From contig JBFMEN010000029.1 in assembly GCA_040753435.1 (NCBI GenBank), forward strand, positions 8,173-72,172: a stretch of 64,000 nucleotides of DNA. Reading direction: 5' to 3'. Below are positions 3,170 through 48,003 of this stretch, one piece after another. The notes under the pieces are model-generated. The model did not search any database, was not told the DNA's origin, and was given only the letters and a program-made list of their open reading frames with translations. How positions within the stretch are numbered: position 1 is the stretch's first letter; each line of letters begins with the position of its first letter. This stretch comes from Candidatus Omnitrophota bacterium (lineage in GTDB: Bacteria > Omnitrophota > Gorgyraeia > Zapsychrales > JANLHA01). Both the position numbers and the translations under genes were made by a program.

Positions 3170-5895
<2,726 letters not shown>

Positions 5896-7091: not shown

Positions 7092-7170
7092 TGTGTATAG
7101 AATCAAAAACGGCTGAAAATAAATAAGATACGAAAAAAATTTTTGTTAATAAGGTGTTGCTTTTATTTGC

Positions 7171-9010: not shown

Positions 9011-9071
9011 TCGGGTCTGCCCGTGCTCCTTTTATGATTAATTATGAATGGCGAGGGAGCAGGGAGGGTTC

Positions 9072-9281: not shown

Positions 9282-9291
9282 GATTCTTACA

Positions 9292-23229: not shown

Positions 23230-23283
23230 AAGTTTTTTGGCAATGGTTCATGTGAATTAATTCGACCTTCGCCGAAAGCCCGG

Positions 23284-23311
23284 TTGATTTTTTGAAATCC
23301 GGCGGTATAAT
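23284..23311 (+). promoter_or_regulatory. Sigma-70-like promoter candidate (TTGATT, 16-nt spacer, TATAAT). It would drive a ~350-nt structured leader upstream of rarA.
   Basis: -35 at 23284-23289 and a perfect -10 at 23306-23311. Confidence 0.4.
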
Positions 23312-23474
23312 AACAATCGCCCTGCGGTGTGCGTTAGCGCTAAAAAAAATGAACCAACGCATCTATAAAGGGACGCCAAACTTCCGACAGTCCTTATGGG
23401 CTGCCGGGGAGGTACCCACGTGGTTACCAGGTTCTCTTTAATTTAGTGCGACGGCATTCGCGGGGCATTTTTAA

Positions 23475-23576
23475 TTTCGCTTGCAAGGGTTCATACCCCG
23501 CAGCTTGCTGCGCGGAATGAAGCCTTTTTCAGGATACCTCGAGGCTCGCCTCGAGGAGTTAAGGCAGGCTTCATTT
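23475..23576 (+). repeat. 102-bp direct repeat, copy A (upstream of rarA). It contains the internal inverted repeat aatgaagcc/ggcttcatt and a tandem cctcgagg-ctcg-cctcgagg.
   Basis: 100/102 identical to 25047-25148. Confidence 0.9.
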
Positions 23577-23593
23577 CCCCGTTTAAATTTCAT

Positions 23594-23622
23594 GTAGAGA
23601 CGTCCCGTCGGGACGTCTCTAC
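23594..23622 (+). repeat. Palindromic element copy 2 (GTAGAGACGTCCC-gtc-GGGACGTCTCTAC) in the rarA 5' UTR
   Basis: Same arms as 19633-19681. Both copies are preceded by tt(c/t)atgtagag and lie 20-45 nt upstream of an ATG. Confidence 0.8.
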
Positions 23623-23666
23623 GCATCAAAGCCTTTCCTTAGGGGGAACCACGAGCATCATTAATC

Positions 23667-25010
23667 ATGAAAAAACAAAAAACATCCTTCAACAACAACC
23701 CCGACTTTTTTTCTGAAGAACAACAACGTGAAATTCTTAAAACATCCCCGTTAAGCGTCAGGATGCGGCCCCAGGTCCTTGAAGAATACGCAGGACAGCG
23801 GCATATCCTGGGGGAAGGAAAACTGCTTACCCGTGCAATTGAATCGGACCGGATCAGCTCGTTGATTCTTTACGGCCCTCCGGGAACAGGGAAAACCACG
23901 CTGGCGTACTGTATCAGCAATAAAACGGATGCGATTTTTGAACGCGTCAACGCCGTGGCGTCAAATGTTGAAGAATTGCGTCAGATCATTTCCGGGGCGC
24001 AAAACCGGAGGCTCACTTCCGGAAGGAAAACGATCGTCTTCATTGATGAAATCCACCGTTTTAACAAGGCCCAGCAGGACGTTTTAATGCCTGATGTGGA
24101 AACCGGAAATATTATTCTCATCGGCGCCACGACGCTCAACCCGTTTTTTTCCCTGGTCAGTCCTTTATTGTCGCGTTCGCTGGTCTTTGAGCTCCAGCCG
24201 CTTTCAACTGAAGATATTCTGGAGTTGCTTCACCGGGCTTTGAAGGACAAGGAGCGCGGGCTCGGTTTCCTGAATGTGAAAGCTGACGCGAAGGCCCTTC
24301 GTTTTCTGGCTGAAACAAGCGACGGGGACGCCAGACGAGCCTTGAATGCCCTTGAGATCGGGGTTTTGACAACTCCAAAATCCGCTGACGGAAGCATTAA
24401 TTTGTCAATGGATGTCGCCCAGGAATCCATCCAGAAAAAACAGGTCGTCTATGACAGAGACGGCGACGCGCATTATGACACGATTTCCGCGTTTATTAAA
24501 TCCATGCGCGGCTCGGATCCCGACGCGACGCTCTATTGGCTGGCCAAAATGATTTATGCCGGCGAAGATCCCCGTTTTATCGCCCGCCGGATTTCAATTT
24601 GCGCGGCTGAAGATGTGGGAAATGCCGATCCCCAGGCCCTGGTCCTGGCCATGGCAGCTTTTAACGCCGCAGAGGTCCTTGGTTTGCCCGAAGCCCGTAT
24701 CCCTTTGGCCCAGGCCGCGGTTTATGTCGCATGCGCCCCGAAATCCAATTCCGTTATTACAGGCATTGACCAGGCCCTGGCGGATGTTAAAGAAAACAAA
24801 ATCCAGTTCGTTCCCGTTCATTTAAAAGACGCCCATTATCCCGGAGCCAAAACACTGAAGCACGGCGAAGGGTACAAATACGCGCATAATTATGAAGGGC
24901 ATTATGTTGATCAGGAGTACATGCCGGAAAAGACGGTTTATTATCACCCAGGTGATGAAGGATATGAGCAAAAAATCAAGGAAAGAATAAAAAAACGGCG
25001 AAAAAGCTGA
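23667..25010 (+). CDS. rarA: Replication-associated recombination protein A (AAA+ ATPase RarA/MgsA)
   Basis: Walker A LILYGPPGTGKTTLA, Walker B IVFIDEIHRFNK, and the MgsA C-terminal domain (YDRDGDAHYDTISAFIKSMRGSDPDA). Confidence 0.93.
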   Translation: MKKQKTSFNNNPDFFSEEQQREILKTSPLSVRMRPQVLEEYAGQRHILGEGKLLTRAIESDRISSLILYGPPGTGKTTLAYCISNKTDAIFERVNAVASNVEELRQIISGAQNRRLTSGRKTIVFIDEIHRFNKAQQDVLMPDVETGNIILIGATTLNPFFSLVSPLLSRSLVFELQPLSTEDILELLHRALKDKERGLGFLNVKADAKALRFLAETSDGDARRALNALEIGVLTTPKSADGSINLSMDVAQESIQKKQVVYDRDGDAHYDTISAFIKSMRGSDPDATLYWLAKMIYAGEDPRFIARRISICAAEDVGNADPQALVLAMAAFNAAEVLGLPEARIPLAQAAVYVACAPKSNSVITGIDQALADVKENKIQFVPVHLKDAHYPGAKTLKHGEGYKYAHNYEGHYVDQEYMPEKTVYYHPGDEGYEQKIKERIKKRRKS

Positions 25011-25046
25011 TAATTCTTGCTTGTCGCAGGGGTTGTTTAATTTTGA

Positions 25047-25148
25047 TTTCGCTTGCAAGGGTTCATACCCCGTAGCTTGCTGCGCGGAATGAAGCCTTTT
25101 TCAGGATACCTCGAGGCTCGCCTCGAGGAGTTAAGGTAGGCTTCATTT
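25047..25148 (+). repeat. 102-bp direct repeat, copy B (downstream of rarA)
   Basis: See copy A. Two substitutions. Confidence 0.9.
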
Positions 25149-25208
25149 GACCAGGATTTTTTAAAAAAAAGCTGTTTCGATTTATAAAAAGAACAATATT
25201 TCCAAAAA

Positions 25209-25236
25209 AGACCGAATTTCCATTCGGTCTTTTTAA
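25209..25236 (+). terminator. Rho-independent terminator (agaccgaat-ttcc-attcggtct followed by TTTT)
   Basis: 9-bp stem followed by a T-run. An upstream A-run could make it bidirectional. Confidence 0.6.
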
Positions 25237-25622
25237 TTTAAAAATGTTTTTTAGAGAAACTGCCCGCCCGTTTGTCCTCCAGAAATATGTTTTTAGTCTT
25301 TACCAGTTGGCGCATAATCAAGTTGCCCGGGGAGCAGGAACTACACACTTTTGGAAAGTTACAACTTTTGAGCAAATCCAGGTTTAATTGGCGCCAGAGG
25401 ATTTCCTGGGAATTCTCCTAAATGCTTAAAATTTTAGGTGGTTTGATGGGTTTTAGTGACGAAAAAAACAGAATTATTTATCGACGGGCTGGTAACATGA
25501 ATTATGAGTCAACGAAGCCCGTTTTTAAATTCTTCGGTAACATTTAACATGAGTCAATTTTTTATTCGGTCTTTATTGACAATATTATTATATTATATGC
25601 TATACTTACAAATATTTACGCA

Positions 25623-28600
25623 GTGTTGCTTTTCCCCGAACGAAAGTCGTTTCATTTCAAAAAGATAGGACTTTTCATGATTCGCCGCATAACGGCTTCC
25701 ATCATTCTGGCCGTTTTTATTTTAACTATTCCTGCTCAAATGGGAATCGCGCAAGTTTTCACGCCGGTTCCAATGCCCACACAAACAGTTGGTATCAGCA
25801 ACACGTTTTTTCCTCCATTGATGGTCGGAATCCAGGTTGATCCGCAAAATCCGCTAAAATTTGATTTTTTTATGTCAAAAGGGCAAGAAAAGCTCGAAGA
25901 AAACATTAAAAAACAAGAATATTTAAAAATTTTGCGCTATTTTCTTGCGTCAATGACGATTCCTGAGGATCATCTCTGGGTTAACCTTTCTCCAACAGAG
26001 AAAGACCGGATTATCGCGGATGATTTCAGCAGAACTCAAATGGGCATGGATTTGTTGGCCCAGGATTATTTTCTGAAACAACTAACGTCTTCATTAATGA
26101 ATCCAGATGATGAAAGCGGCAAAAAGTTTTGGAAAAAAATTAAAAAAGAGGCTAAAAAACGATATGGAATTACAGAAATTCAAACAAGTGTTTTAAATCG
26201 TGTTTGGGTTCTTCCTGAAAAAGCGATTGTGTATGAACAGGAAAAATCAGCATGGGTAATTTATTGCCGGCTGAAGGTGATGCTGGAAGAAGATTTTTTA
26301 AGTTCCCCGGATCCCCAGTTCCCTGGTTCCGCAGCAAAGGATTTGACCGGGGCGCCGGGGCACGGGGGCACTGGGGAACTTGAAAAGCAGGTTATGCGCG
26401 AGGTAATCATTCCCGAATTGGAGCGCGAGGTCAACGAAGGGAAAAACTTTGCCGTCCTGCGTCAGATTGTCAATGCAATGGTAATGGCCGAATGGTACAA
26501 GAGGTCATTAAAGGAAAGTATTTTAGGGAAGGCTTATGTTAATCAGTCCAAGGTCAGCGGAATCGATACGGAAGATTTTAAACGGAAACAGCAGATTTAT
26601 GACGCTTATTTGAAGTCATTTCAACAGGGCGTTTATGATTTTATTTATGAAGATATTGATGAAGAGACCGGAGCGATTTCGCCGCAACACTATTTTTCAG
26701 GAGGATATCAGCCCGATTTAAAAAAGGCTGTTAGCGTTGTTGATGACCCTGGAGAAATCCCCCTTCAATATCGTGTTCCTTCCGAGCAATACATAAAAAA
26801 AGTAACTCAGTCCGGAATTGATCGTGTGACCGGCGGAGCGCAACTGGTAAGTTCCCCGGAGCAACAATCCACCCCAGCAAAGAGCCCTTCCGGGGAAAAT
26901 TTATCCACAAAAGGCAAGGACATTCCTTCAGACAAGGAAGCCGCAGAAAAAGGTTCTACCGGGAAACAGGGTGGGGGGCTTGATCATGCCATGCTCGCTG
27001 ATTTTAAACCCTCCAAAGATTACAGCAGGCTGGAATTTCCAGAGCTGGCAGAGGATTTTTTTCAATTGATGCAAAAATTTGTCGAGTCCCTGGACGAGGA
27101 GGAGTGGGGGCAAGCTAAACAGGTGTATGTAGATTTGAAAACGATGACCGGGTTTTTAAGCGGGAAAGCGAAGGCGCAATCTTTTGAAGATTTTCGGAAA
27201 ACTACAGGGGCGATTCTGGATCGGACGGAAATTTTTCTTCAGTTGTTCGGCGGGCGGCAGGTGAACACGGAACAGGGTTCGGCCGTCTCCGTGGACATGA
27301 ACGTTCTTCAAAAGGAAATGGTCCAGATTGGGCAGAAGAAATTTTCTGAACAGACACGAAAGCTGATTGATCAAATCATTGAGGAAGTTGTCAGCGAGCT
27401 CTTTGATGATGAGGCTGAGAAGAGAAAGTGGCGGGAAAAACTGACGCGGGATATTGTGATGATGAATTTTGAAAACATGATCCCGGAAAAGGTTATCGGC
27501 GACATCGCCGCGCATAAAGATTATTTGATCAGCACGGTCCTTGAAATGACAAAAGGCCTGGGGCAAGCTGAAGGGTTTTTTGATCCATATGCCTCCTCGC
27601 GGAAAGTTTTCTTGAAAGATTTCGACGGGAATGAAGCGTTGTTCAGGGGCGTCGTTGAGCATGAGCTTACGCATTACGGCATTTTCCGTATTCCTGAACA
27701 ATGGGAAAACATTTCATTCGCCGTCTCACTGTTGGCAGCGATTTCTTTTGCTGAAAAACAGGGCCAGGCAATCGATGTTTATTTTAAGGAATTTTCCGAT
27801 CCGCATGTTTTTACTCCTGCTCTTGTAAAAGCCTTGTTTGAAAAAGGGCGGGTGATGGGGCAAGGCGGCGAGACCGGTTTTATCGTTTCGCCTGGCGTTT
27901 CCGACCGGAACGCCGGATACTTTTCGACCGAGTATTTGCTGTCTTTGACAAGAGAGGTTTTTGAAGAGACCGGGGCGCGGACCGATCTTTTACACGATGA
28001 TTATCAAAAACAGCGCGCGGCCGGGATGATGATCGCAGGCATGTTGCTGGGCATGAATGACAAGGATGCCGCAAAAAAACCTCTCCGGCTGTTAAAAGAT
28101 TTTTTTGATGTGCTGTATGAACGCTACGGCGATCCGACCGAAGCCAGCCCTCAAACCGGTTCCGGGGTTAAAAAATTAATTCAGGATCTTGAAAAATATC
28201 TTTCCTCTTCGGCAGGGATGATCGTCAAGCTCAAACCCGTCGCGAGCGGATCCTGGAATTTCAGGACAACAGGGCAGTTTTCGGCTGAGGTGGATTTTGT
28301 TATTTCCGACCTTTTTCCCCGTTTCTACGACGGGAAAGATAAAAATGATGCTGAGGGACAGATGGAGGCCGCCCGGGAACGGGCCTTCGGCCAGGCGTTT
28401 CTCGCGTTATCGAAAACAAAGAACGGGATGCGCCACCTGATGCACGGGCTGGACCCGTCTATTCAGAACGAGCCAGCTTCGATCCATTTATGGGACACAC
28501 TGTTGTTGTCAAAGTCCGCGAAGATCGGGGTGGATGTGAACGCGCAAAAGCTGAGAACCGGATCCATTGAGGAACAATTTACCGGTTCAGGACGCTGGAT

Positions 28601-31448
28601 CATGCGTGTTTTTAAAGACCGTTTTGAGATCGGCAATCCGATGGTGGAAGAGGCCCTCTTTTTGTCCCAGCCGCGATTTTTGCGGTATCTGGATTCTCTC
28701 CTTTACCGGCGGTTTTATTATGATGAAAAGGAAAAAAAGATTGTTGATCCCAGGGTCAAAGATCCGGTCCTCGACGATGCTGTTGCCCGGACCATGGGTT
28801 CGGCCACGGATGCATCAAATTTTGGATGGGCGAAAATTTTACTGGCCCCGCAGGATTTGACCGATGATCAGATCAAGGATATTTTCAACCGGATATGGCC
28901 GGTGTTTCAGGATCTCTATGCCAGGGACTTAAAGACCGAGGTGAATTGGCGGGCCTATCAGCGCAAGATGCGGGAAGAACGTCAGCAGGCGAGACGTCAA
29001 CAGTTCGAGCAGCTGTCGCCGGAAGGACTTCAGGATCTCGAGGATTACTTCAACAGCCTGCCGGAAGAAACCCGGGAGGCGATCCGCCAGGCTGCCGAAA
29101 AGATGCTGCGCGGGCAAATGGAACAGTTCGGAGAGCAGGGGCAGGACAGGGGACAGGAACAGGGCATGGAAGGGATGGAGGGCATGGAAGGCATGCCCAT
29201 GCCCGAAATGGAAGGAAAGACGGGCCGAAAACAACAACCGGGCAAAGGAGGTTCCAGGGGTTCTCAGCAAACACTTCCCTCCGGAGCACGGCCAGGCCAG
29301 GAAATGTCCGAAGGGGAAGGCGGCGGGGAAATTTCACCTGAACAAATGCGCGGCATGATAGAGGATATCGGACGACAGTTAAAAGGTTTGGAACAGCAGA
29401 TCGATGATATTTCAAACGGGTTGAATGCCGCCCGGTCTCAGACGGAAAATCTGGACCGCGGCGCGAAAGATCTTGACCAGTCCCGGGAATTGGAACAACA
29501 GCGTGAGAAGTCCACGGACCTGCACAAAAAAGCAAAAGATTTACAGGACGATGTTCAGGGGATTTTGAATCAGGGCCGCCGGGTGGAAGAGAGAAGCCGT
29601 CATCAGGAAGACATGTCCCGGGGAATGCAAAACGGCCTGCCTTCTCCGGAAGAAGGAGAAGGAGTTGCCGAGGATTCCAGGGACCTTTCGGGGAAGGCGC
29701 AGGAACTGCTCGATAAATTATCCGGACTTCAGCAAAAGGCTAATCAGCTGGAGAGAAGCACGGGAAATCTTGAGCAAAAATATGGAGAGCATCATCCAGA
29801 TGATTCCCAGGTGGCAAGCCAGTTGCGTGATGTCGAGCGTTCTATCAAGGAAATGAAAGATCAGATTGACCAAGGCCGAGGGGCCGAACGGTCCATGCTT
29901 CGGCAATTGCATGAACTGGAACAGGGAATAGAGAAGCTGGAGAGATCTTTGGATGCGGCCCGTCAATCAGCAGCGGCGGGCAAACAACCGGTTTCAGGAC
30001 AGGAAGACAAGGGAGTCAAGGGCGCCCCAAAATCTTTGGCCTCACAAGCTCCCGCCAATTCCGGAACGAATCAACAATCATCAAGCGAGCCGATTTCCGC
30101 ATCCTCATCTCAGCCGCAGTCTTCAGGTGCCACGGCTTTAAAAGATAACGATCAATCGAAAGAACCGCAAAGCAGTCAATCTTCCGGGACGCTGCATAAG
30201 ACACCGGATACCCTTGATATGCCCAACGCGGAAAGTCTGGAGGAAATGCTTCGGGAATCTCCGGCGGAACGGGCCGACCGTCCCCGACCGAAAAGAAAAG
30301 TGCCTGATCTTAAGGCGGCCCGCCAGTATGAAGAGGATTTGCTTCAGAAAAAAACAGGACTTAACGCGAATCAGCGCGCCGAGCTGGAAACGTATTACAA
30401 CAAAAGAGTCAGATATAAGGGAAGGGAGATGACAGTCCGGCAGCTTGTTAACGACATGACAGAGCGGCTCAAGATATTGACGCTGCCAGTCGAGGATGTC
30501 GGCTTTCAGGGCAACCTGGAGCACGGACCTGTTTTTGATCCGGTCAAGGCTGTCATCGGGCATGACGCTCCTTATGGACAATGGCGGCCCAAGGAACCTT
30601 TGTCGGTTAAGATTACATTTCTTCTTGATAACAGCGTCAGTATGGATTTGGAGTTGGAAGGTGGCGTTAAGCGGATCGATGTCGTCAGACTGACCACGTT
30701 CATTTTATTGAACGCCCTGCTCAATCATAATGAGGAGCGAGCCCGGCTGGGGTATGATCCGATCGAATTTGAGATTGCCTTGTTCGAGGATTCCGAGGCA
30801 AAGCCTCTTGTGTCGCATGAGACAGTCCGGGAGAAAAATTTCCGCAAAGATCGTTTGTTGTATGAAACATGGAACGGGCTCAACGCCGCCGGGCCGGCAA
30901 CGTATTACGCGCAGAATTTGAAAAAATTTACGGCGAGACTCGCCGGCGCTCTGGATAAAGGGTTTGAAAAAAGCACCAGAATTTTAGTGAGTGTCAGTGA
31001 TGAAGATGTGGATGAAGCGCAAAAACAAGACATCCTGGAGACCTATGCTCAGGCGGAAGCGGCAGGACTGCATTTGTTTGTCGCTCCTGTTGGTAACCAA
31101 AAGCTTCTCCGGGACACGATGGATCTCCATCGGGATCATAAAGAACGCGTGATCCGCCCGTTCCCTGTTCCTGAATTTCCCGCCAACGTCATGGACGCTT
31201 TGATGGAGACAATTCCTTCGTTCGAGGCAATGGCCGGCAGGGACGGCGCCATGTTGACGGAAGAACCCAAAGCCATAGAAGGATACAAGCATTTCTTTAC
31301 CCAGAAAATCAACGGACGAGAGTATCTTGTGTTTCACGGGGAGATACCCGCCGTTATTGGGAGCGTGGACATGGAAGGCCTGGATTTGTGCCGGACAAAA
31401 GAGTTCCCGACATCTCTCCGAATGAAGACAAGATCGTCAGGATTTTAG
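25623..31448 (+). CDS. Giant-locus ORF 1 (1941 aa). It has an N-terminal hydrophobic signal/anchor, an HExxH motif, E/Q/G-rich coiled-coil and low-complexity segments, an S/Q-rich linker, and a C-terminal von Willebrand factor A domain with a MIDAS motif. The likely true start is the ATG at 25678.
   Basis: MIRRITASIILAVFILTIPAQMG hydrophobic segment. VVEHELTHYG at 27651-27680. GMEGMEGMEGMPMPEMEG and long heptad-like stretches at about 29000-29950. vWA: KITFLLDNSVSMD (DxSxS, 30621-30647) ... ETWNGLNAAGPATYY ... ILVSVSDEDVD. Confidence 0.8.
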   Translation: MLLFPERKSFHFKKIGLFMIRRITASIILAVFILTIPAQMGIAQVFTPVPMPTQTVGISNTFFPPLMVGIQVDPQNPLKFDFFMSKGQEKLEENIKKQEYLKILRYFLASMTIPEDHLWVNLSPTEKDRIIADDFSRTQMGMDLLAQDYFLKQLTSSLMNPDDESGKKFWKKIKKEAKKRYGITEIQTSVLNRVWVLPEKAIVYEQEKSAWVIYCRLKVMLEEDFLSSPDPQFPGSAAKDLTGAPGHGGTGELEKQVMREVIIPELEREVNEGKNFAVLRQIVNAMVMAEWYKRSLKESILGKAYVNQSKVSGIDTEDFKRKQQIYDAYLKSFQQGVYDFIYEDIDEETGAISPQHYFSGGYQPDLKKAVSVVDDPGEIPLQYRVPSEQYIKKVTQSGIDRVTGGAQLVSSPEQQSTPAKSPSGENLSTKGKDIPSDKEAAEKGSTGKQGGGLDHAMLADFKPSKDYSRLEFPELAEDFFQLMQKFVESLDEEEWGQAKQVYVDLKTMTGFLSGKAKAQSFEDFRKTTGAILDRTEIFLQLFGGRQVNTEQGSAVSVDMNVLQKEMVQIGQKKFSEQTRKLIDQIIEEVVSELFDDEAEKRKWREKLTRDIVMMNFENMIPEKVIGDIAAHKDYLISTVLEMTKGLGQAEGFFDPYASSRKVFLKDFDGNEALFRGVVEHELTHYGIFRIPEQWENISFAVSLLAAISFAEKQGQAIDVYFKEFSDPHVFTPALVKALFEKGRVMGQGGETGFIVSPGVSDRNAGYFSTEYLLSLTREVFEETGARTDLLHDDYQKQRAAGMMIAGMLLGMNDKDAAKKPLRLLKDFFDVLYERYGDPTEASPQTGSGVKKLIQDLEKYLSSSAGMIVKLKPVASGSWNFRTTGQFSAEVDFVISDLFPRFYDGKDKNDAEGQMEAARERAFGQAFLALSKTKNGMRHLMHGLDPSIQNEPASIHLWDTLLLSKSAKIGVDVNAQKLRTGSIEEQFTGSGRWIMRVFKDRFEIGNPMVEEALFLSQPRFLRYLDSLLYRRFYYDEKEKKIVDPRVKDPVLDDAVARTMGSATDASNFGWAKILLAPQDLTDDQIKDIFNRIWPVFQDLYARDLKTEVNWRAYQRKMREERQQARRQQFEQLSPEGLQDLEDYFNSLPEETREAIRQAAEKMLRGQMEQFGEQGQDRGQEQGMEGMEGMEGMPMPEMEGKTGRKQQPGKGGSRGSQQTLPSGARPGQEMSEGEGGGEISPEQMRGMIEDIGRQLKGLEQQIDDISNGLNAARSQTENLDRGAKDLDQSRELEQQREKSTDLHKKAKDLQDDVQGILNQGRRVEERSRHQEDMSRGMQNGLPSPEEGEGVAEDSRDLSGKAQELLDKLSGLQQKANQLERSTGNLEQKYGEHHPDDSQVASQLRDVERSIKEMKDQIDQGRGAERSMLRQLHELEQGIEKLERSLDAARQSAAAGKQPVSGQEDKGVKGAPKSLASQAPANSGTNQQSSSEPISASSSQPQSSGATALKDNDQSKEPQSSQSSGTLHKTPDTLDMPNAESLEEMLRESPAERADRPRPKRKVPDLKAARQYEEDLLQKKTGLNANQRAELETYYNKRVRYKGREMTVRQLVNDMTERLKILTLPVEDVGFQGNLEHGPVFDPVKAVIGHDAPYGQWRPKEPLSVKITFLLDNSVSMDLELEGGVKRIDVVRLTTFILLNALLNHNEERARLGYDPIEFEIALFEDSEAKPLVSHETVREKNFRKDRLLYETWNGLNAAGPATYYAQNLKKFTARLAGALDKGFEKSTRILVSVSDEDVDEAQKQDILETYAQAEAAGLHLFVAPVGNQKLLRDTMDLHRDHKERVIRPFPVPEFPANVMDALMETIPSFEAMAGRDGAMLTEEPKAIEGYKHFFTQKINGREYLVFHGEIPAVIGSVDMEGLDLCRTKEFPTSLRMKTRSSGF

Positions 31449-32788
31449 ACACTTTTTACCCTCTCGCAAAAAATTACACCTCATATTCAAACGATGGGAA
31501 GTATCTGATCCGTAAAGTTCAGGATGGTCTGATCGAGGTCCTGGAAAGCGATCAGGATGTGTTATTTAACATTGCAAACAGTAATATGGGACCGGCGATG
31601 CGTTTGGGTGCAATAAAGAAGATGAAAGAGTTGATTAAAAACGGAAAGAACGTTAAGAAATGGACAAGGATGCTGGAAGAAGTTATCCAGAGGGAAGCAG
31701 ATTTAGAAGTTTTTATCGCATTGGGAGAAGCGCTTGGAGCGGGGTATAAGGCGGGAGCTCCGGTGGGAATAACGGAGGAATGGTTTATAGCGAAATTACA
31801 TGTCGGAAAAGGGAGTATTCGTTCAGGCATGGTAAAGATGATTCAGGGAGTGATTGAAAGCGAGAAGGGCGGTGAAAAGTGGGTCAGGATGCTGGAAGAA
31901 ATGATCCATAGGGAAACAGATCCGGAAGTTTTTATCGCATTGGGAGAAGCGCTTGGAGCGGGGTATAAGGCGGGAGCTCCTGTGGGATTAACGGAAGCAG
32001 TGATTAAAGCAAATTTGAACACCGGAAACGGCATTGAGAATTGGGGAGTTCGTTTAGCTGCCGTGAAGATGATCCAGGGGTTGATTGAAGGCAGGATTGC
32101 TGTTGCGAAGTGGGTGAGAATATTGGAAGAACGTTTCAAGGTTGAAACAGAGAGGGATGTTCTAGGCGCGGTGGTCGAAGCGCTGGCAGCGGGGTATAAG
32201 GCGGGAGCTCCTGTGGGATTAACGGAAGCAGTGATTAAAGCAAATTTGAACACCGGAACCGGCGTTGAGAATTGGGGAGTTCGTTTAGCTGTCGTGAAGA
32301 TGATCCAGGGGTTGATTGAAAGCAGGATTGCTGTTGCGAAGTGGGTGAGAATATTGGAAGAACGTTTCAAGGTTGAAACAGAGAGGGATGTTCTAGGCGC
32401 GGTGGTCGAAGCGCTGGCAGCGGGGTATAAGGAGGGGGCCTCTGTGGGATTAATAGACGCAGGGATTAAAGAAAGATTAAACACCGGAAATGGCATCGAG
32501 AGCCGGAGAGTTCGTTTGGCTGCTGCGAAGGTAGCCCAGAGATTGATTGAAAGGGAGAAGCGCGATGAAGGATGGGTGGGGTTGATTGAAAGCAGGATTG
32601 CTGTTGCGAAGTGGGTGAGAATATTGGAAGAACGCTTCAAGGTTGAAACAGATCCGGAAGTTTTGATCGCATTGGCAGAAGCGCTGGCAGCGGGGTATAA
32701 GGCGGGAGCTCCTGTGGGATTAACGGAAGCAGTGATTAAAACAAATTTGAACACCGGAAACGGCGTTGAGAATTGGGGAGTTCGTTAG
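31388..32788 (+). CDS. Giant-locus ORF 2 (466 aa) made of HEAT/ARM-like helical repeat units. It is probably the same gene as ORF 3, interrupted by a 1-nt frameshift, and possibly continuous with ORF 1 through a -1 frame change.
   Basis: About 77-aa units KWVRMLEE.IQRE.D.EVFIALGEALGAGYKAGAPVG(I/L)TE... The frame is open upstream to 31174 (61-nt overlap with ORF 1). It ends at a TAG created where gttcgtttagct became gttcgttagct. Confidence 0.7.
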   Translation: MPDKRVPDISPNEDKIVRILDTFYPLAKNYTSYSNDGKYLIRKVQDGLIEVLESDQDVLFNIANSNMGPAMRLGAIKKMKELIKNGKNVKKWTRMLEEVIQREADLEVFIALGEALGAGYKAGAPVGITEEWFIAKLHVGKGSIRSGMVKMIQGVIESEKGGEKWVRMLEEMIHRETDPEVFIALGEALGAGYKAGAPVGLTEAVIKANLNTGNGIENWGVRLAAVKMIQGLIEGRIAVAKWVRILEERFKVETERDVLGAVVEALAAGYKAGAPVGLTEAVIKANLNTGTGVENWGVRLAVVKMIQGLIESRIAVAKWVRILEERFKVETERDVLGAVVEALAAGYKEGASVGLIDAGIKERLNTGNGIESRRVRLAAAKVAQRLIEREKRDEGWVGLIESRIAVAKWVRILEERFKVETDPEVLIALAEALAAGYKAGAPVGLTEAVIKTNLNTGNGVENWGVR

Positions 32789-35700
32789 CTGCCGTGAAGA
32801 TGATCCAGGGGTTGATTGAAAGCAAAATTGATGTTGCGAAGTGGGTGAGAATGTGGGTGAGAATATTGGAAGAACGTTTCAAGGTTGAAACAGAGAGGGA
32901 TGTTCTAGGCGCGGTGGTCGAAGCGCTGGCAGCGGGGTATAAGGCGGGAGCTCCTGTGGGAATAACAGACGCAGGGATTGAAGAAAGATTGAACACCGAG
33001 AATTGGGGCGGTCGTTTGGCTGCCGTGAAGATGATTCAGGGGTTTATTGAACGCAGGATTGCTGTTGCGAAGTGGGTGAGAATATTGGAAGAACGTTTCA
33101 AGGTTGAAACAGATCCAGAAGTTTTGATCGCATGGGGCGAAGCGTTGGCGGCTGGGTATGGGGAGGGAGCCCCTGTGGGATTAACAGACGCAGTGAGTTC
33201 AGGGGAATGGCGCTCGTTGCGGGAATTCGGAAAATCTTCTGAAACAAAAGAGATCAACGGGGACAACGGCGAACGAATATTTGAAAATGCCCAGGGTCTG
33301 AGGTGGAAGATTAATGAAGAGGGAAATTTTCAGATCAGCCAGAATAATGGACAATTTATTCCGCTTAAGCAAAATCTCGAAGGGAACGGGCCACGGGATC
33401 TTTACGAAATAGACGCTTCAAGAATCCTTGCCTTTGATCAGATATCCGAGACAGTGAATGTTTTGGTAAAGGAAAATGATGCCTGGCGGGTCGAGCATGA
33501 GTTGATGATGGAAGAGGAGGATCGCGCGAATTCATGGGACGGGGTCATGCTGCGGCTGATCGGCGAGACCGGACTCGGAAAAGACGAGATTACTCTTGCC
33601 GCGGCGAACCTGATCGGTGAAGAGGTTTATGTGGCGGTCGGTAATTCAGATATGGATGTGGAAGATCTCGTTACAGGGTTTCAAAGTCTTGGCGGCCAGG
33701 AGAAAGGGACGTCGGGCGTTGAGCCGTCGGGCTTGAATAAAGTGATGCATAACGGCGGCTGGTATATTATCCGGGAAGCGCACAAACTTCGCCCCGGGGT
33801 TTTCAACGCGCTCAAGTCGCATGTTTCCGCCAAAGACCACAAGTGGCCGGTTATGCGTGACGGGATTGAGCGTTTTGAGACTATTCAGAACAATCCGCGA
33901 GCGCGGGTCGTTTTATCGGTGAACCGTATTCGTAAAGGCATCACCGGCGCGAGCACCGAGACCAACGGCCCGATGCAGGACAGGGAGCGGGATCTGGAAT
34001 TTTACTGGCTTGAACCCGATGATGAAGTGGACTTGCAGGTCGAATATGCCCTGGCCATGGCCCGGGAGAAGGGCCTTCACAGTGATGATTGGGAAACGTT
34101 TGAGGATCAGGTCAGGAAAGATGCCAGAGAGCTTGTGGATATCGCGGCTCAATTGCGGCTGACATTTGCCGGATATAACGCAGAACAGCAGGCCGAGATT
34201 CTGAGAGACTGGAATTTAATCGATTCCAAAAATCTTGTCCAAAAGATGGTAAAAGACTCCCGCATTAAACAATTGTTTGAAAGCGGCCCCGCCTTTGAAA
34301 CCGGGGAAATGCTCAAGCGCCCGCCGTCACCCCGTGTGGTCAAAAATATTTTGCAGCATTTGATCCTTTTCCCCAAAGACCGCCGCTACCGGTCTTTTGA
34401 AATCGTTAAAAAATATTACAACTTTCACGCGGAGATTTCCGGCGAGCTTGAAGAAGCGGCCATTGAAAAATTTACCGAGTGGGAAAGCAAAAGGCCCGAC
34501 AGTCATCCTGTAAAACTAACGGAAAAGTCATTTATTGTTGATGGACAGGATCTTATTATCCGCCCTGAACCGGAGGCGGATGGAACAACGTATTGGGATG
34601 AGGTGCGTGTGCCCCTGCATTCAAAAGCGTCTATCCGGACACGGGGAGTTCCCGGAGAAGTTTTGGACTGGATCAAAAGCGGAGCCAACGCACAAAATCT
34701 TTACTCCTATCTCCAGGGACGCGCCTTGGGCAAACACTGGATCTTCGTTGGAAAACCCGGCGCAGGAAAATCCACCATGATTGCCGCGATTCAAAAATTA
34801 TTGAACGCGCCCGGGAGCATGAAGCTTGAGATCACGGAAGAAACCCGAAAAGATCACCTGACGTATTCTCGTAACATTAAAGAGTTTGAAACCCGTTTTA
34901 CAAAAGAAGTCCTTCCGTCGGCCATGGAGGACGAATACGGGGAAGGACAGATCCTCAATTTAACCGAGAGCACGCAGGGCCGTCCCTCGATGCTGTCTTT
35001 GCTGAACGAGGTTTCCGAACGGAACGAACTCCCGGATCCGAATTCCAAAACGCAGGTGAAGAAGGCGAAGAGAGGTTTCGGCACGATTCATGATATTAAT
35101 CCCCCGGGCACAGCCGACCGGCTGAAGGCCTTTCCCGATGATTTTATCGAGCGGCACATGATTATGTGGTTTGATACGCCCCCTTCTGACCAGGTGACGA
35201 TGTATCTGGAAGAAGCAGGCCAGGGCAGGACGTTTCCCGAAGATATAAAATTTCAGGTCCATCCTTCTTTGATCGGGCAGCCGCGACAGGACGCGAACGG
35301 GAACAGCGAGAAATATGACGACGGGGAAATCAAATATACCGGTATCGTAGGTATAGGGCAGGAGATCAATCGCAAATTGATGGAAGATCCTTATTTTTTC
35401 CCGAAAGACAGAGAGATAAGCTACCGCAATCTCCAGGCCTTTGTCAAGGCGATCGTTGCCTATTATGAGCGCGATATCAGCATGGGCAACACCCCGCAGG
35501 ATGTTATTTTGAATCTTTTTATGGAAACGTTCACGCTTGAAGGCAAGCCGGGGAAAATGCTCGAATGGCGGACAAACATTTTAAAAGTATTTCAGGATTT
35601 GGGCTTGTATGATCCCCAGGCCGGCCAGGATGACGGCAGCGGCGGTATTGTTCCCGACGCGATTGAGAAATTCCTGAACAAGGAAGGAGTGCTCGTCCAG

Positions 35701-38700
35701 AATCTTCCGGTTTTAAAAGAACCGGATTCGGGATATCTGAACATTGACCGGATATTAAGGTTTTTGCAAACAAATACGGTTGGGCTGGGGATTCGAAGAA
35801 ATCTGGATGAGTTATCCAGTGAGGCCGGAAAGCTTTTGAGCGCAGAGACGAAAGAGTCTCTTTCGAAATGGAACGCGTTACCGGTGTCCGAAAAAGCCCG
35901 CCGCCTTCGCGCGATCCGTGAGATTTATGATGTGTTGGGGCTGATTAAAGAAAACCGGTTTGATTCAAAACAGGGCCCGGCCTATCAGTCAGAGGAGCAG
36001 GTCCGCCTGGGGGCGATTATCGAGCAGATTGTTTCAGTTATCGTTGTTCAATGGAACTGGCCCCAGGAGATTTTCACCCGCGCCGATTTAACAGAGACGG
36101 CCAAAATGTCATTAACGGAAATCCTTGACCGGCAAAGAGACAGGTTCCCGGAGATTTCAAACGCGATTTACAAAGTTATGTTGTCCGACGGGAAAAAGGA
36201 ATATCTTGATGAGCTTGAGAAAGAAATCGCGAAGAAGGGAAAGGATGTCAGCGCGCTTAAGGAAATTGTAAATATTTTAAAGCAGACAAGGGCCCTGTTT
36301 TTTCAAAATTTGATCAAATCATTGAATCAAAAAATCCGGGAAGAAGAGTTGGCGGTCAGCAATCGTCAACCGGACGCTCCTGATCAGGGAAATTGGACGC
36401 GAGCCCAGGTTGAAGAAGATCTGGCGCGTGTGAATCAGTCTCTTGCCGGAATCGAAAAAGAGCGCGGGTCGTTAATAAATAATGAGGTAAAGAATATTTC
36501 TCTGCGAGAGGGGAGAGACAAACTGTTGCAGAGAATTTCATTGAGAAAAGAAGCGCTTTTGTCGGATGTGCAAAAGCAGGACGGCAATGATTTTGATTGG
36601 GAGATTCGTTTGCGGGCAGTCAGGATCATTCAGAGTTTGGTGGAAGCGGGAGATGATAGTTGGGACATGCTCCTGGAAGAAAGGATTATGAGGGAAGATG
36701 ATTTTGATGTGTTGGAAGCGCTGGGGGAAGCCTTGGGAGCGGCTTATCGCGCGGGCGCCGATGTTGGGCTGGATGAGGAGAATATTCACTTGGGGCTTGA
36801 GGCGCAAGAAGATGAGATTCGTTTTGGAGCGGTCATGATGATCCGGGCGTTGATTGAAGGGGGAAATGATATTGAAAAATGGGTCAGACTTCTGGAAAAG
36901 GCGATTGAGAAGGAAGAGGAGTTTGCTGTATTAAGGGCAATGGGAGATGTTCTCGGTATGGGATATCAAGCGGGGGTTTCATCCGGTTTGAATAAAACGA
37001 CGGTTCGCAGACAATTGAATTCCGACAAAGGAAGCGAGAGTCGCGCTATCCAAAAGATTCGGGCGTTGATCAAAGGAGGAGATGCTGCGACAAGACAGCG
37101 ATGGGTTCGCATCTTGGAGAAGAGAATTTTGATTGAAGAAGAGCCGTCTCTTGTTAAAGGGCTGGGAGAGGTATTGGGGATAGCATATAAAGAAGGAGTT
37201 CGCTGTGGACTGGATAAAGCTAAAATTCAAAGCATGATTCAAACTCCGGGTGGTTCCCCGAATTCGGATTTCAGACTCGGCGCGCTTCAAATGATCCGAG
37301 GGTTGATTGAAAAAGGGATGGATGTTGGACACTGGGTGGAGGTTTTAGAAAAGGCGATTTCGGTTGAAATGGATCAGAAACTGTTGGACCTGATGGGAGA
37401 TGCCTTGGCGGTCGGATATCAGGCCGGGGCCCCGGTTGGTTTGGATGAAAATTTCATCAAGGCCGGTCTTGAAGTAAGGGGGATTGACCATTGGGAGGGA
37501 CACCGTTTAGGTGCGGTCAAGAGCATCCGGGCGTTGATTCAGGGAGGGCATGATGTTGAAAAATGGTCGAACGTCCTGGCAGAGCGAAGGGCGAAAGAAG
37601 ATAGTCCGATTGTTGTTCCGGCGATTCAAGAGGCAATGGAAATGGGGGTTGCTTATGAAAAAATCCGGAGGGGAGATTGGGAGAGCCTTGCGGAATGGAG
37701 TTCTCTGACAGATCTTTCGTCCGCATATGAGGCGTTAAGGGCAATCAACGCGATGAGCGCGAGAAAACAAAATTCTTTTTCTTCGGAATGGAAGGACCTG
37801 TTGATCCAAAAGATACGGGCGAGAGAATCCGAGTTGACCTTAAACTCCTCTCAAGAGGATTGGAAAATGCTTGTCGTCACTGTCAGAATTATTCAGCGGT
37901 TGATTGAATCGGGGGATGATGCTGAAAAATGGGTCGGTTTTTTGGAGGATGAAATTCGGGATGAAGTACGGCCGGATGTTTTAATGGCCTTTGGAGAAGC
38001 CCTGGGGGCTGTTTACCGGAAAGGAGCTCCGTTCGGATTACGTGAAGGAATGATTCGCGTGATGCTCAATGATGATGCATATTGGAAGACACGAGCCGGA
38101 GCAGCCAGGATGATTCAAGGGTTAATTGAGAGCGGGCAGACACCCAAAAAATGGGTTTCTGTTTTAAAACGGAGACTGAAGAGCGAAAGCGATGTGGATG
38201 TTTTACATCTTATTGGAAAAGCATTGGCAGCCGCTTACAGGAGAGGGCTTCTTGCTGGCGGAGATGAAACCAGAATAAAGAGGGATGTTGAAGGAATAAA
38301 CGCGGATTGGGATAAAGGCTTTATCGCTTTAAATGTAATTAAAAGTTTGATCGAGGATGGTCAGGAAGTTGAGAAATGGGTCAGGTTTCTGGAATCGAAA
38401 ATTAAAACCGAACAAGATGACAGTATTTTAAGGGTGATGATCGAGGCGTTGGGAGCTGGGTACAGGTTCGGAATACCTGTCGAACTGGATGTGGATACGA
38501 TCAAGGAGATCCTCTCTTTCAAAGAAGATGTTATAGATTGGGAAATTCGTTTTGCTGCGGACGGGCTCGTTTTGGAATTGATTAAACGCAGACACTTGCC
38601 TGGGACGTTGGTTAATCTTTTGGAACAACAGATGCTGGTGGAAACGCATTCCCGTGTTTTGCCCGCTTTAAGCGAGGCCCTGGAAGCGGGATACCGGGCC

Positions 38701-41700
38701 GGAGTTCCATCCGGGCTGGATCCGAAAGAGGCGGAGAGAAGGTTGCAACTTGAAGGAAAAATAGAGGAAAAGAAATCTCGTTTAGGCGCGGTCAGCATGA
38801 TCCGGGCGGTAATTCAAACTGGATATGATATTGAGAAATGGCAGGATGTGCTGAGAAAGAGAATGACGGGCGAGAAGGATGAGGAAGTTCTGGCAGCGAT
38901 TAAAGAGACGCTCGCGATGGTGGATATTTATGAAAAAATCCGTCAAAACGATTTGGACGGTTTTGGGAAATTGATTTCCTCGGCGGATTTGAAAATGATC
39001 GGCGCGGTGTTCGAAGCTGTTACCGTTATGGGAAATCGGACTGGAGTGGTGGATAAAAACAGAGAGGAAGAAGTCAAGCGAAGGGAACGCCTTAAACAGC
39101 GGTGGGATCAATTGGTGAATCGCCGGAAAGTTCTGGAAGAGCTGCTTGAGGTGCTGAAGGAGCAGGAGACGCTTGGATTGCCCGGAGGGGCGTCCCTTTT
39201 TGAAGAAGAAAAAAATATTTTTTCCAGCGAGCGGAAGGAAAAACTGATTCAGAATATGGTGGCTCGGGAAACAGAGATTGAACGGGCGTTAATGACTGTT
39301 GGTGGTGGTTTCTGGAGAAACCGTTTAGCCGCGACCAAGGCAGTTCAGAGATTGATTGAAGCCGGACTGGGTGTTCAAAAAAGGGTCGGCTTTTTGGAGC
39401 AGAGAATTAAAATTGAAGACAATATTGATGTTTTAAACGCTATGGCAGCAGCGTTGGGCGCGGGTTACCGGGCTGGGGCTGCGGTTGGGTTAACTGGAAC
39501 AAAATTTGAGGAAATACTTGAAATCGAAAAAGATCACGGGGCGATTCGGAGCCCCGCAGCCAAATGGGTTTTGATCAGGAATGTTAAAATGATCCAGAGT
39601 TTGATTGAAGGCGGACATGGTGATGAGAAATGGGTCCGTCTTTTAGAACAAAGGATCGCGGTTGAAACAGATGAGGAAGTTCGGAATGTTTTAAGTGAAG
39701 CTTTGGGCAGCGGATACCGGGCCGGGATTTCTGTCGGGATGAATGAGTCGGACATTGAAGCATCTTTTCAAAAAGGGAAAGGCGGAGAAATTTACAAGAT
39801 CAGGGCTTTAATCAGGGGCGGGCATGGGAAATGGGTTGATTTTTTGGAGGAAAGAGTCAGGAAAGAAGAAAAGGACACAGCTGCCTTTTTGGGGTTGGGG
39901 AAACTTTTAGGAGAGGTTTATCAATCCGGCATTCCGACCGGCGTGGATCCGGATGTGATGATAACATTGTTGAATTCAGGAAATGGCATGACGGACAGGT
40001 TTACCCGCTTAAGTTTAGTCAGGATGATCAGAGGATTAATTGAAGGAGGGCAGGATGTCGGGGTCTGGGTGAAAGCTTTGGAAGAAAGGATGAAAAAAGA
40101 AACAAATTATGATGTTCTTCAAAGCATTGGCGAGGCTTTGGGGGCCGCATATCGTTCCGGCGCCCATGTCGGTTTGGATCTGGATACGATTAAGAGTAAG
40201 TTAAATTTTGAAGGTGAAGATGCCAATGCCGGGTGGCCGGTTCGTTTCGGCGCAGCCAGGATGATTCAGGGCCTGATTGAAAGAGGATACAACGTTGAGC
40301 AATTGATGATTATGATAAAAGAGCGAGTGAGAGACGAAGAAATAAATATCGATGTCCAACGGGCGCTTCAGGAAACACTCGCGATGGCGGGTATTTATGA
40401 AAAAATCCGTCAGAACGATCTGGACGGTTTTGGGAAATGGATTTCCTCGGCGAATTTGACAACGGTTATTGCGGCGGTAGAGGTTCTTGACGCTATGAGA
40501 TCGGAAGGAAAAAATATTCTTTGGCGTGAATGGAAGGAGAAGTTATATCAGAGCGTTGTGTCACGGAAAGCCGGATTGTCCTTGACTTCCCATGTGGAAG
40601 ACAGGAAAGGGCTTTTAGTTAAAGTCGGGATCATCCAGCGGTTGATTGAAGCGGGACAGGATGTTCAAAAATGGGTCGGTCTTCTGGAGGATGAAATTTG
40701 GGATGAAGTGAGGCCGGATGTTGTAATGGCCATGGGAGAAGCGCTGGGGGCTGGTTACCGGAAAGGAGCCGTGACCGCTTTAACCGAAGAAATGATTGCA
40801 GGGATGCTTAATGACGACTCTGGCGATGAGTCCTGGAAAAAAAGAGTCGGAGCAGCCCGGATGATGCAAGGGTTGATTGAGAGCGGGAATGAACCTGCAA
40901 AATGGGCTGCTATTTTGGAACAGAGATTAAGGACGGGAATCGATGGCACTTGGGTTTTAAATGCTCTTGGGGATGCGCTGGCTGCCGCATATAGAAGAGG
41001 AATTCCTGCTGCTTGGGATGAAGAAACGATCAAAACGAATTTCATCGGAAAAGACGATGATTGGAATAAAGGCTTTATCGCGGCTAATGTGATTAAAAGG
41101 CTGATTGAGGATGGCCAGGAAGTTGAGAAATGGGTCAGGTTTTTGGAACAGAATGTTGATTTTACAAAAAATGACAGTTTTTTAAGAAGTTCGATTGAGA
41201 CGTTGGCAACGGGATACCGATCCGGAATTTCCTCAGGGTTGCAACCGAATATAATCTTTGATGTACTTAATTTCGGAGCAGATTCTTCAGGGTGGGGAAT
41301 TCGTTTCGCCGCGGCCGGGTTGGTTGGGAGCTTAATTGAAAGCGGGCAGGCTCGCGAAAAATGGGTTGGTGTTTTGGAACTCAGGATTTTTGGGGAAGAA
41401 GATTTTCGTGTTTTGCGGGCTTTAAGCGATGCCCTGGGAGCGGGATACCGGGCCGGAGTTCCGGTCGGGCTGGATCCGGAAGATGTTGAGAAAGGGATTG
41501 ATCTTGAAGGGGAGACAGGGGAACAGAAATTTCGTTTTCGCGAGGTTAGCCTGATCGGGGCGTTCATTCAAGCCGGATATGATATTGAGAAATGGCGGGA
41601 TGTGCTGAAAAAGAGAATGGCGGTCGAGAAGGATGAGAATGTTCTATCGGTGATTAAAGAGACACTCACGACGGCGGTTGTCGATGAAAAAATCCGTCAA

Positions 41701-46872: not shown

Positions 46873-47065
46873 ACTTTTTCACAACAACACGTTTTTGTTT
46901 TTAAACACCTTCCTTTTTTATAAAAAAATAACCCTTTAAAAACTTTAATATCTTCATGAAAACAAACAATTTAGAGTGCTTTTTTGTCTGAAAAAATGGC
47001 ACGAAAAATGCTGTCTGACAGGTATTCAATAAAAACACAATGCCGTTTTTGAAAGGAGCCCCGAA

Positions 47066-47734
47066 ATGAAGAAGTTTTTATTAACCGCCGCGCTCGTCTG
47101 TCTGATTTTTGGAGTACCCCGGGAAGCAAACGCTCTTATCCATGTAGGAGATTTTGGCGAGTCCGGATGGCAGAATTTCAGTTTTACAGCCGCAAACTCT
47201 TTTAATGGAAACATAGGATTTTTAGTCAGCGACGTTGGGGACATCCTCGTGCCGTCAACATTGCTCATTGATAATATCGTTGTTCAAAATCAGGTTGTTC
47301 AAAGTTTTGAAGATGCCGCATTGCCGGGGACATGGTATGGAGACGCCTATTTGGTTAATAGTCATACAACGTACTATGGTTCGGAATACAATCCTACCAA
47401 CGGCAATCAGATGCTTTTTATGGATTCTGATGGTACAGATCCTGCGACAGGAAATCTCGGGGTAATAGCCGATACGTCTGCTTATGGCGGTACCGATGGC
47501 GTTTATGGATATATGCCGTTTGCCTTCCAGGCGGGCAATATAGTTTCTTTTGATTGGGCGTTTATAACCGAAGATTATTTACCGTACAATGATTTTTCAA
47601 TGTTTTTATTAATGGACGATCTCGGAGAATCAAGAACAACGCTGGCGGATGTCGGCGTTGTTCCGGAGCCCGCATCGCTGTCCTTGTTCGGTTTAGGGCT
47701 CGCAGGATTATTTTTGCGGAAGAAACGCGCATAA
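47066..47734 (+). CDS. PEP-CTERM sorting-domain protein (secreted, exosortase substrate)
   Basis: Signal peptide MKKFLLTAALVCLIFGVP. C-terminal VPEPASLSLFGLGLAGLFLRKKRA is a PEP motif followed by a TM segment and a basic tail. Confidence 0.8.
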   Translation: MKKFLLTAALVCLIFGVPREANALIHVGDFGESGWQNFSFTAANSFNGNIGFLVSDVGDILVPSTLLIDNIVVQNQVVQSFEDAALPGTWYGDAYLVNSHTTYYGSEYNPTNGNQMLFMDSDGTDPATGNLGVIADTSAYGGTDGVYGYMPFAFQAGNIVSFDWAFITEDYLPYNDFSMFLLMDDLGESRTTLADVGVVPEPASLSLFGLGLAGLFLRKKRA

Positions 47735-47763
47735 TTACCGGGAAAATGATAATTTATTAAAAA

Positions 47764-47797
47764 GGGTGATGGGTAAACGCCATCACCCTTTTCATTT
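47764..47797 (+). terminator. Rho-independent terminator (gggtgatgg-gtaaacg-ccatcaccc followed by TTTTcaTTT)
   Basis: 9-bp GC-rich stem followed by a T-run, 30 nt after the PEP-CTERM stop codon. Confidence 0.65.
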
Positions 47798-48003
47798 AAG
47801 ACGGTTTATTCCAGGGGAAGATTTGCAAATGTTATAAAAGTTTTCCATTTTTGGACAAAAAGAGCCGGGCCGTATTAAAAAAGAAAAAAACGCTGTTATT
47901 TTAGTTGTCATCTTTTTAAAAAAATGTTACCATATACCCATCTGTAAGCAGTTTCTAACCCGTTTAAGAGGAAAGACTTTTATTCTTTCGTCGCAAAATC
48001 AAT

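Follow-up and report, generated by a model that had tools for sequence, protein, structure and literature searches.

We analysed a 64,000-nt stretch of the genome of a Candidatus Omnitrophota bacterium (hereafter the window), in which the gene rarA stands between two copies of a direct repeat. A repeat search of the window delimits this element at 108 nt, with copy A at 23469-23576 and copy B at 25041-25148 (97% identity, blastn E ~2e-47). The copies share an uninterrupted identical core of 64 bp and differ at three positions, all of them transitions (A/G at position 5, C/T at 33 and C/T at 97). An earlier sequence-only reading had described 102-bp direct repeats bracketing rarA (23475-23576 and 25047-25148); over that length 2 of 102 positions differ (98% identity), in agreement with its description, and the true extent reaches 6 nt further left. 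The palindromes and inverted repeat that it placed inside the element are also present, namely CTTGCAAG, AATGAAGCC...GGCTTCATT and the tandem CCTCGAGG-CTCG-CCTCGAGG.

Copy A ends 91 nt 5′ of the rarA start codon (ATG at 23667), and copy B begins 30 nt 3′ of the stop codon (25008-25010). The edges of the repeat are sharp: the flanks of 60 nt upstream and 90 nt downstream are dissimilar between copies (z 0.25 and -0.9 against shuffled sequence), and homology beyond the 108 nt, including an apparent likeness to the 3′ end of 6S RNA upstream of copy B, is not significant. The copy number within the 64-kb window is two. Both copies adjoin rarA, none lies in the window's many other intergenic regions, and a 31-mer of the element has exactly two matches in the window against none in 100 shuffles. 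The features around rarA follow one another on the plus strand as 6S promoter, 6S RNA gene, copy A, a 14-bp hairpin, rarA, copy B and a terminator-like hairpin:

23284..23311, plus strand: sigma-70-like promoter of the 6S RNA gene (TTGATT-16-TATAAT), which aligns with relatives together with 6S
23316..23470, plus strand: 6S (SsrS) RNA gene (Rfam RF00013, 56.4 bits against a gathering score of 46.4)
23469..23576, plus strand: copy A, in the spacer from 6S to rarA, composed of a 5′ module and a long hairpin
~23469-23513, plus strand: 5′ module of copy A, with two small hairpins at 23487-23498 and 23500-23511
23514-23577, plus strand: long hairpin of copy A, enclosing CCTCGAGG-CTCG-CCTCGAGG
23594..23622, plus strand: palindromic hairpin GTAGAGACGTCCCG-T-CGGGACGTCTCTAC, a perfect 14-bp stem of GTAG...CTAC type containing GTAGAGAC...GTCTCTAC
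23667..25010, plus strand: rarA/mgsA, 447 amino acids (Pfam MgsA_C 6.8e-70, AAA_assoc_2, AAA)
25041..25148, plus strand: copy B, at the left edge of a lineage-specific 22.7-kb block
25204..25234, no single strand: bidirectional hairpin resembling an intrinsic terminator, A6-GACCGAAT-TTCC-ATTCGGTC-T5, 56 nt after copy B

After its closing stem, 6S ends in a U-tract, which continues into copy A. The element is not part of the 6S RNA, as the RF00013 model aligns end to end (1-187) to 23316-23470. Both the 6S gene adjoining copy A and the 22.7-kb insertion adjoining copy B were missed by the sequence-only reading, and both alter how the repeat is to be read. The 6S promoter is the only promoter-like site on the plus strand between pheT and rarA; readings of sigma-54, ECF and SigB-like promoters were dropped after a check by eye, since their spacing was inconsistent between relatives. 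The encoded RarA is 100% identical to a protein of a Candidatus Omnitrophota metagenome-assembled genome at NCBI. The terminator-like hairpin gives weak Rfam matches to small-RNA terminators on both strands. Two 31-nt inverted repeats (25187-25217 and 25564-25594, 81% complementary) enclose a 346-nt AT-rich segment that lies between the terminator of copy B and the promoter region of the first giant open reading frame (ORF) of the block, and one repeat arm overlaps the terminator hairpin.

At positions 1-9300 the window carries gyrA, gyrB, dnaN and dnaA on the minus strand, then yidC, parA and parB on the plus strand, which continues with thrS-infC-rplT-pheS-pheT. The sign of the GC skew flips near 8 kb. 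From this flip and the gyrA-gyrB-dnaN-dnaA/yidC-parA-parB arrangement, we conclude that the window spans the replication origin and that rarA lies ~15 kb away from it.

Fold and sequence content of the element

Single copies of the element fold better than shuffled sequence (z -3.0 to -3.9) on either strand, and the whole 6S-to-rarA spacer of the window reaches a fold z of -6.8. The two hairpins of the 5′ module have 4-bp stems (GGGU-UCAU-ACCC and GCAG-CUUG-CUGC). The long hairpin is an extended structure of 64 nt, written in RNA letters as GGAAUGAAGCCU...AGGCUUCAUUUC around CCUCGAGG-CUCG-CCUCGAGG, with 26 bp and internal loops; the inverted repeat AATGAAGCC...GGCTTCATT extends to a 12-bp stem. 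Six G.U pairs in the extended hairpin are possible on the plus strand only, and the sole substitution that falls in a stem (C to U) retains pairing as U.G.

A terminator scan found no intrinsic terminator inside the element. The long hairpin has an AU-rich base, after which comes UUUCCCCG in copy A or UUUGACCAGG in copy B, a layout that lacks a GC-rich stem with U-tract. A small ORF starting from the ATG in GGAATGAAG (26 codons in copy A, 16 in copy B) was considered and rejected, having no usable spacing to a ribosome-binding site; a substitution truncates the copy B version.

These folds are compatible with the sequence-only suggestion that the repeats are copies of a structured RNA. Rfam release 15 gives no match over either copy at gathering score. 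At E<=10 over 23200-25450 nothing falls on copy A, and the matches that reach the 3′ end of copy B from the terminator region are at chance level (best E 0.08, far below gathering). The copies could be independent small RNA genes or a protein-binding platform, with copy B and its terminator, for example, yielding a transcript of ~190 nt. The stable multi-hairpin fold, the strong terminator 56 nt after copy B, the hairpin and U-rich tract that precede each copy, and several GGA motifs in the loops of the element are what such a gene might display. However, neither strand has a promoter-like site inside a copy or immediately upstream of one, Rfam offers no family even at the relaxed threshold, and the full unit is conserved in no relative. 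We therefore regard small RNA genes or binding platforms as very unlikely.

Distribution and ancestry of the element

Blastn over the window and 80 related loci found no third copy, and ~1.1 Mb of related loci held no copy of the full element. A covariance model (R1) run over 745 kb recovered the two copies, a minus-strand palindromic echo and a partial match in two related loci only (L082/L083), and a covariance model of the 5′ module matched only its own training sequences. The gapped exact pattern of the long hairpin had 0 matches in species-representative genomes and 0 in a metagenome collection, the 20-mer CCTCGAGGCTCGCCTCGAGG had 0 matches in viral contigs, and a distant blastn search of plasmids gave no match. 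The REP-like genomic family offered by the sequence-only reading was thus not confirmed in the window, the related loci or the genome, metagenome, viral and plasmid collections searched. The same reading had held that an absence of other copies and of conserved structure in relatives would point to incidental duplication; we found no other full copies, whereas sub-modules of the element are conserved beside rarA in relatives.

Diagnostic features of known mobile or programmed elements were sought at both copies. The ends do not form the terminal inverted repeats of a miniature inverted-repeat transposable element (MITE), as the left end TTTTAATTTCGCTTGC is not complementary to the right end GGCTTCATTT and the inverted repeat is internal. 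Candidate target-site duplications are AT-rich near-repeats only (TAATTTC/TAAATTTC at copy A, GATTT at copy B), and their distance to the edge of homology is not consistent. The GTAG head of REP elements is not in the element and is present in the separate hairpin at 23594-23622. Features of diversity-generating retroelements are lacking: the copies differ by A/G, C/T and C/T, neither of them is coding, and the window has no reverse transcriptase. We do not assign the element to any named family, since it fails, or leaves undecided, the defining features of REP/BIME and of Correia/ERIC.

Hairpin-forming sites around a single gene superficially recall integron cassettes, and 108-bp repeats with a 64-bp identical core are an adequate substrate for RecA-dependent deletion or duplication. 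The copies might accordingly be programmed recombination sites of attC or cassette type that excise, circularise or amplify rarA; the sequence-only reading had raised excision or amplification by homologous recombination. The attC core sites (RYYYAAC ... GTTRRRY) are not at the element ends, however; an internal GTTAAGG fails the final Y. A Pfam scan of the window's ORFs revealed no integrase, recombinase, transposase or RAYT-like gene. Further, rarA occupies its ancestral syntenic place near oriC, with 6S-rarA-ygfA in a housekeeping position in all relatives, and relatives retain rarA without the repeats. Programmed excision or amplification of rarA finds no supporting evidence here, and a dedicated system of this kind is extremely unlikely. 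At low frequency, recombination between the 108-bp repeats could remove or amplify rarA, which would be a side effect and not a demonstrated mechanism.

The order 6S, rarA, ygfA, rny, ymdB is conserved across Omnitrophota. In two scans the 6S gene immediately preceded rarA, at 13 of 16 and at 6 of 9 related loci, and in relatives rarA is followed by ygfA-rny-ymdB after a gap of 120-330 nt. The close relatives are few and mostly on short contigs, and additional metagenome RarA loci are <=74% identical. From the end of 6S to the start of rarA there are only 12-66 nt in 11 of 13 more distant Omnitrophota. In the subclade of the window (RarA 78-85% identical) this gap has widened to 60-280 nt, and its content varies by lineage:

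L084, L169 and L081: AT-rich stem bounded by 25-nt inverted repeats, with GC hairpins inside
L082: purine/pyrimidine-rich stem
L172 (1-216): 89-nt hairpin-forming unit in 2.4 perfect tandem copies, ending at the contig end
L170: GTAGAGAC hairpin only
L087: hairpin nested inside an outer stem

L171 holds a partial, diverged copy of the 89-nt unit of L172. The spacers of the relatives cannot be aligned with each other or with the window, and most fold very strongly (z -7.8 in L084, -6.9 in L081 and -6.0 in L087). In the most direct comparison, between L084 (3685-3827) and L087 (1609-1765), the 6S genes are 99% identical and the rarA starts near-identical, and the spacer between them is wholly replaced. 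The conserved property of the 6S-to-rarA spacer is strong structure, not sequence, and its turnover is fast.

Perfect GTAG...CTAC hairpins stand beside rarA in the window (23594-23622), L081 (2415-2442), L087 (1724-1752) and L170 (2840-2868), and another occurs in the distant L012 (1580-1605), ~2.4 kb from rarA. Several share GTAGAGAC/GTCTCTAC bases and vary at the tips. Seven such hairpins in 1.16 Mb, against 0-3 for control tetramers, amount to a mild enrichment, and they may constitute a REP-like hairpin family.

Parts of the element have relatives of their own. Its 5′ ~50 nt are homologous to two rarA leaders: that of L082/L083 (TTAATTTCGCTTRYAAGG..CATA..CCC), with a covariance-model score of 21.7 bits (E 0.002) and a local alignment z of 5.4, and that of L087 (..TCGCT..CGCGGAAT.AA.C.TTTTTC; z 5.1). 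In L081, the closest relative, it is the region 3′ of rarA that is collinear with the long hairpin, linker and GTAGAGAC hairpin (z 5.2, p<0.002 against dinucleotide shuffles), and the pattern there is GGAATGGAGCC..TTTTT..TCATTCCC..GTAGAGAC..GTCTCTACG. A degenerate trace of this L081 arrangement lies 3′ of copy B at 25238-25262 (z 2.4-4.0). The window has two sense-strand occurrences of the motif GGAAT-N(4-10)-TTTTTC no more than 300 nt from rarA, and L081 and L087 also carry the motif at such a distance on that strand, with ~0.06 occurrences expected by chance in close relatives. As judged from these alignments, the 108-nt unit is a composite of two modules with separate histories, related modules standing on either side of rarA in different relatives.

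The exchange of structured modules bears on another explanation, that the element belongs to a small non-autonomous mobile or REP/MITE-like family with further genomic copies, two of which chance to flank rarA. Presence/absence and replacement polymorphism of structured modules between loci with 99%-identical 6S genes (L084/L087) would be expected of such a family, as would the MITE-like 25-nt terminal inverted repeats of the module in L084 and L081, the 89-nt tandem unit of L172, and the mildly enriched GTAG...CTAC hairpins (7 against 0-3), one of them away from rarA in L012. The element itself behaves differently. Its two copies in 64 kb flank the same gene, with none in other intergenic regions; its ends are not inverted repeats and lack a clean target-site duplication; and it joins an ancestral leader module to a hairpin, unlike a transposing unit. 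No transposase or RAYT-like gene is in the window, and exact and gapped pattern searches of genome, metagenome and viral collections returned zero matches. We consider a mobile family unlikely.

Origin of copy B and a possible role in the rarA transcript

Copy B marks the left edge of sequence that separates rarA from its ancestral downstream genes:

25149..47897, plus strand: block of ~22.7 kb that is not in relatives and parts rarA from ygfA
25623-31448, 31388-32788 and 32773-46872, plus strand: giant repeat-protein ORFs of 1941, 466 and 4699 amino acids, contiguous or overlapping
47066-47734, plus strand: PEP-CTERM protein, in the 22.7-kb block
48004..48594, plus strand: ygfA, 5-formyltetrahydrofolate cyclo-ligase (Pfam PF01812, 2e-43)

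The 4699-amino-acid ORF has an AAA_5 domain, and dozens of HEAT-like repeats of ~77 amino acids (231-nt period) run through the 466- and 4699-amino-acid ORFs. The GC skew of the giant-ORF block is very high (up to 0.43), and the three ORFs may be one frameshifted giant gene. Owing to the block, ygfA, rny and ymdB lie ~23 kb from rarA in the window. A promoter-like motif, TTTTAGTTGTC...AAAAAAATGNTAMCATAT, precedes ygfA at ~47899-47937 and is conserved in relatives (L084 ~5205-5245, with equivalents in L169, L170 and L171); because of this conserved motif, ygfA probably has its own promoter besides any read-through from rarA. We rejected an assembly artefact, since the ancestral neighbours (rarA and the ygfA promoter) bound the block on both sides and the two copies of the repeat differ by three substitutions. 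Elsewhere, rarA is followed by a gene other than ygfA in L081 (a DUF3108 lipoprotein, 2533-3717) and L168 (an unrelated 326-amino-acid ORF, 2669-3646), which points to several independent rearrangements of the rarA 3′ junction.

Given this position, copy B could be a neutral scar, a functionless by-product of the insertion of the block, for instance templated filler copied from 1.5 kb upstream, with neither copy acting beyond any leader sequence. Its place at the left junction of a block that relatives lack agrees with such an origin, as do the sharp edges, the near-identity of two copies only, the absence of the full unit from every relative and the independent rearrangements of the same junction in L081 and L168. 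Against it, L081 lacks the block and has a related hairpin at the same place, so that an element-like module 3′ of rarA may predate the insertion. In addition, ~90 nt, including the terminator, lie between copy B and the first clearly block-specific sequence, and the block ends without a recognisable junction signature (a search at a lax E-value, with mostly noise returned, found no significant att-like repeats or junction signature at its two ends). A mere scar is improbable on balance, though we rate it above a mobile family.

We favour a local origin. It is likely that copy B is a block copy made within the locus, copy A being the resident version in the leader and copy B a recent copy of leader DNA in the 3′ flank of rarA, as opposed to the transposition of a defined mobile unit. 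A block copy from the locus of copy A is indicated because the unit spans the leader module and the hairpin module contiguously, and these are of separate ancestry. The copy appears recent and local because its edges are sharp, there are only two copies, and these are 97% identical while relatives at 85% RarA identity cannot be aligned here at all. Gene conversion seeded by a related hairpin already present 3′ of rarA could have produced it, as could a short duplication of segmental or template-switch type; the 3′ flank of rarA probably carried a related hairpin before copy B.

The transcript offers a possible role for the two copies. It is very likely that 6S and rarA are co-transcribed from the 6S promoter, because a gap of 12-66 nt between them in 11 of 13 relatives leaves little room for a separate promoter and because no other promoter-like site lies between 6S and rarA. 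Copy A would then fall within the 5′ untranslated region of rarA, and copy B would precede a strong terminator within its 3′ untranslated region. As stable hairpins, the copies may mark or protect both termini of the rarA mRNA once 6S has been released, in the manner of intercistronic processing or stabilising structures. Any strong fold would suffice for end protection or processing, which would account for fast sequence turnover with structure kept. We hold this RNA-level role to be possible and rather more doubtful than not, and the favoured explanation as a whole, a local block copy with a structural role at the rarA transcript ends, stands only slightly short of an even chance. Whatever its function, the element is probably a hairpin repeat of ordinary kind, intergenic and specific to this lineage, and nothing about it suggests a gene-excision system.

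Several points weigh against the favoured explanation. Co-transcription, processing and effects on stability are inferred, as is the direction of copying, which is the less certain because an element-like hairpin exists 3′ of rarA in L081. Two near-identical copies give no statistical power for covariation, the structure-neutrality of all three substitutions would be expected by chance an estimated ~40% of the time, and the minus strand of the element folds about equally well. Spacer replacement between near-identical strains is also expected of functionless selfish palindromic insertions. Finally, further copies may exist in the source genome beyond the window.

The hypervariable, always-structured position between 6S and rarA is the more interesting by-product of this analysis. 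In this Omnitrophota clade the 6S-to-rarA site might be a dedicated cassette position, at which near-identical strains swap unrelated, strongly folding RNA modules (the 108-nt element, GTAG hairpins, AT-rich stems bounded by inverted repeats and the 89-nt tandem unit), with copying of modules across rarA as well. They could represent undescribed interchangeable processing or insulator hairpins tied to 6S maturation, or a new mobile RNA-hairpin element targeting the 6S 3′ flank. We find this proposal decidedly unlikely, if less so than small RNA genes. If the hairpins are functional, the locus would show how a bacterium separates the abundant regulatory 6S RNA from the mRNA of a replication-restart gene on the same transcript, and that selection can act on being structured and not on sequence. 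If they are selfish or neutral, it is a recombination-prone hotspot ~15 kb from the replication origin in an uncultured phylum. The conserved linkage of 6S, rarA and ygfA is in addition a useful anchor with which to locate 6S RNA in Omnitrophota genomes.

Comparison with known systems

In the E. coli ssrS-ygfA operon, 6S RNA is processed from a transcript shared with the downstream ORF. The Omnitrophota locus resembles this operon in having 6S first, a protein gene close behind on the same strand, and ygfA in the cluster; it differs in that rarA sits between 6S and ygfA. We know of no description of large hypervariable structured spacer modules for E. coli.

The 6S gene also lies close to rarA in lactic acid bacteria and Bacillus; among the lactic acid bacteria rarA is upstream of 6S, both are thought to be monocistronic, and flanking repeats are not mentioned (PMC8414754). 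The order is reversed in Omnitrophota, where 6S is immediately upstream of rarA on the same strand. This order combines the 6S-ygfA linkage of E. coli with the 6S-rarA linkage of Firmicutes. We found no paper on 6S RNA in Omnitrophota.

A functional likeness may lie with the RNase III processing stems of rRNA operons and phage T7 early mRNAs, in which extended hairpins flank a unit that is cut from a longer transcript. The two copies at rarA are direct repeats that fold locally and not flanks that pair with each other.

REP/BIME elements of enterobacteria are intergenic sequences transcribed with the genes beside them; their stable hairpins, located between cistrons or at the ends of genes, can stabilise the mRNA upstream, and REP elements carry a conserved GTAG head. 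The adjacent hairpin at 23594-23622 is REP-like in that it starts with GTAG and ends with CTAC. The element differs in having two known copies against hundreds, in being a 108-nt composite and not a 20-40-nt palindrome, and in its lack of a GTAG head, with no RAYT seen in the window. Correia (CREE) and ERIC elements are ~100-150 nt, are co-transcribed with adjacent genes, and form long hairpins that can be cut by RNase III and that alter mRNA stability; they also show presence/absence polymorphism between strains. The wholesale replacement of the spacer between close strains is similar. The element at rarA departs from them in lacking inverted repeats at its termini and a clear target-site duplication, and the searches yielded no dispersed copies. 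By analogy, the element appears most like the transcribed hairpin repeats of REP/BIME or Correia/ERIC type and would functionally resemble intercistronic processing stems. It is a new, lineage-restricted example of an already known kind of thing.

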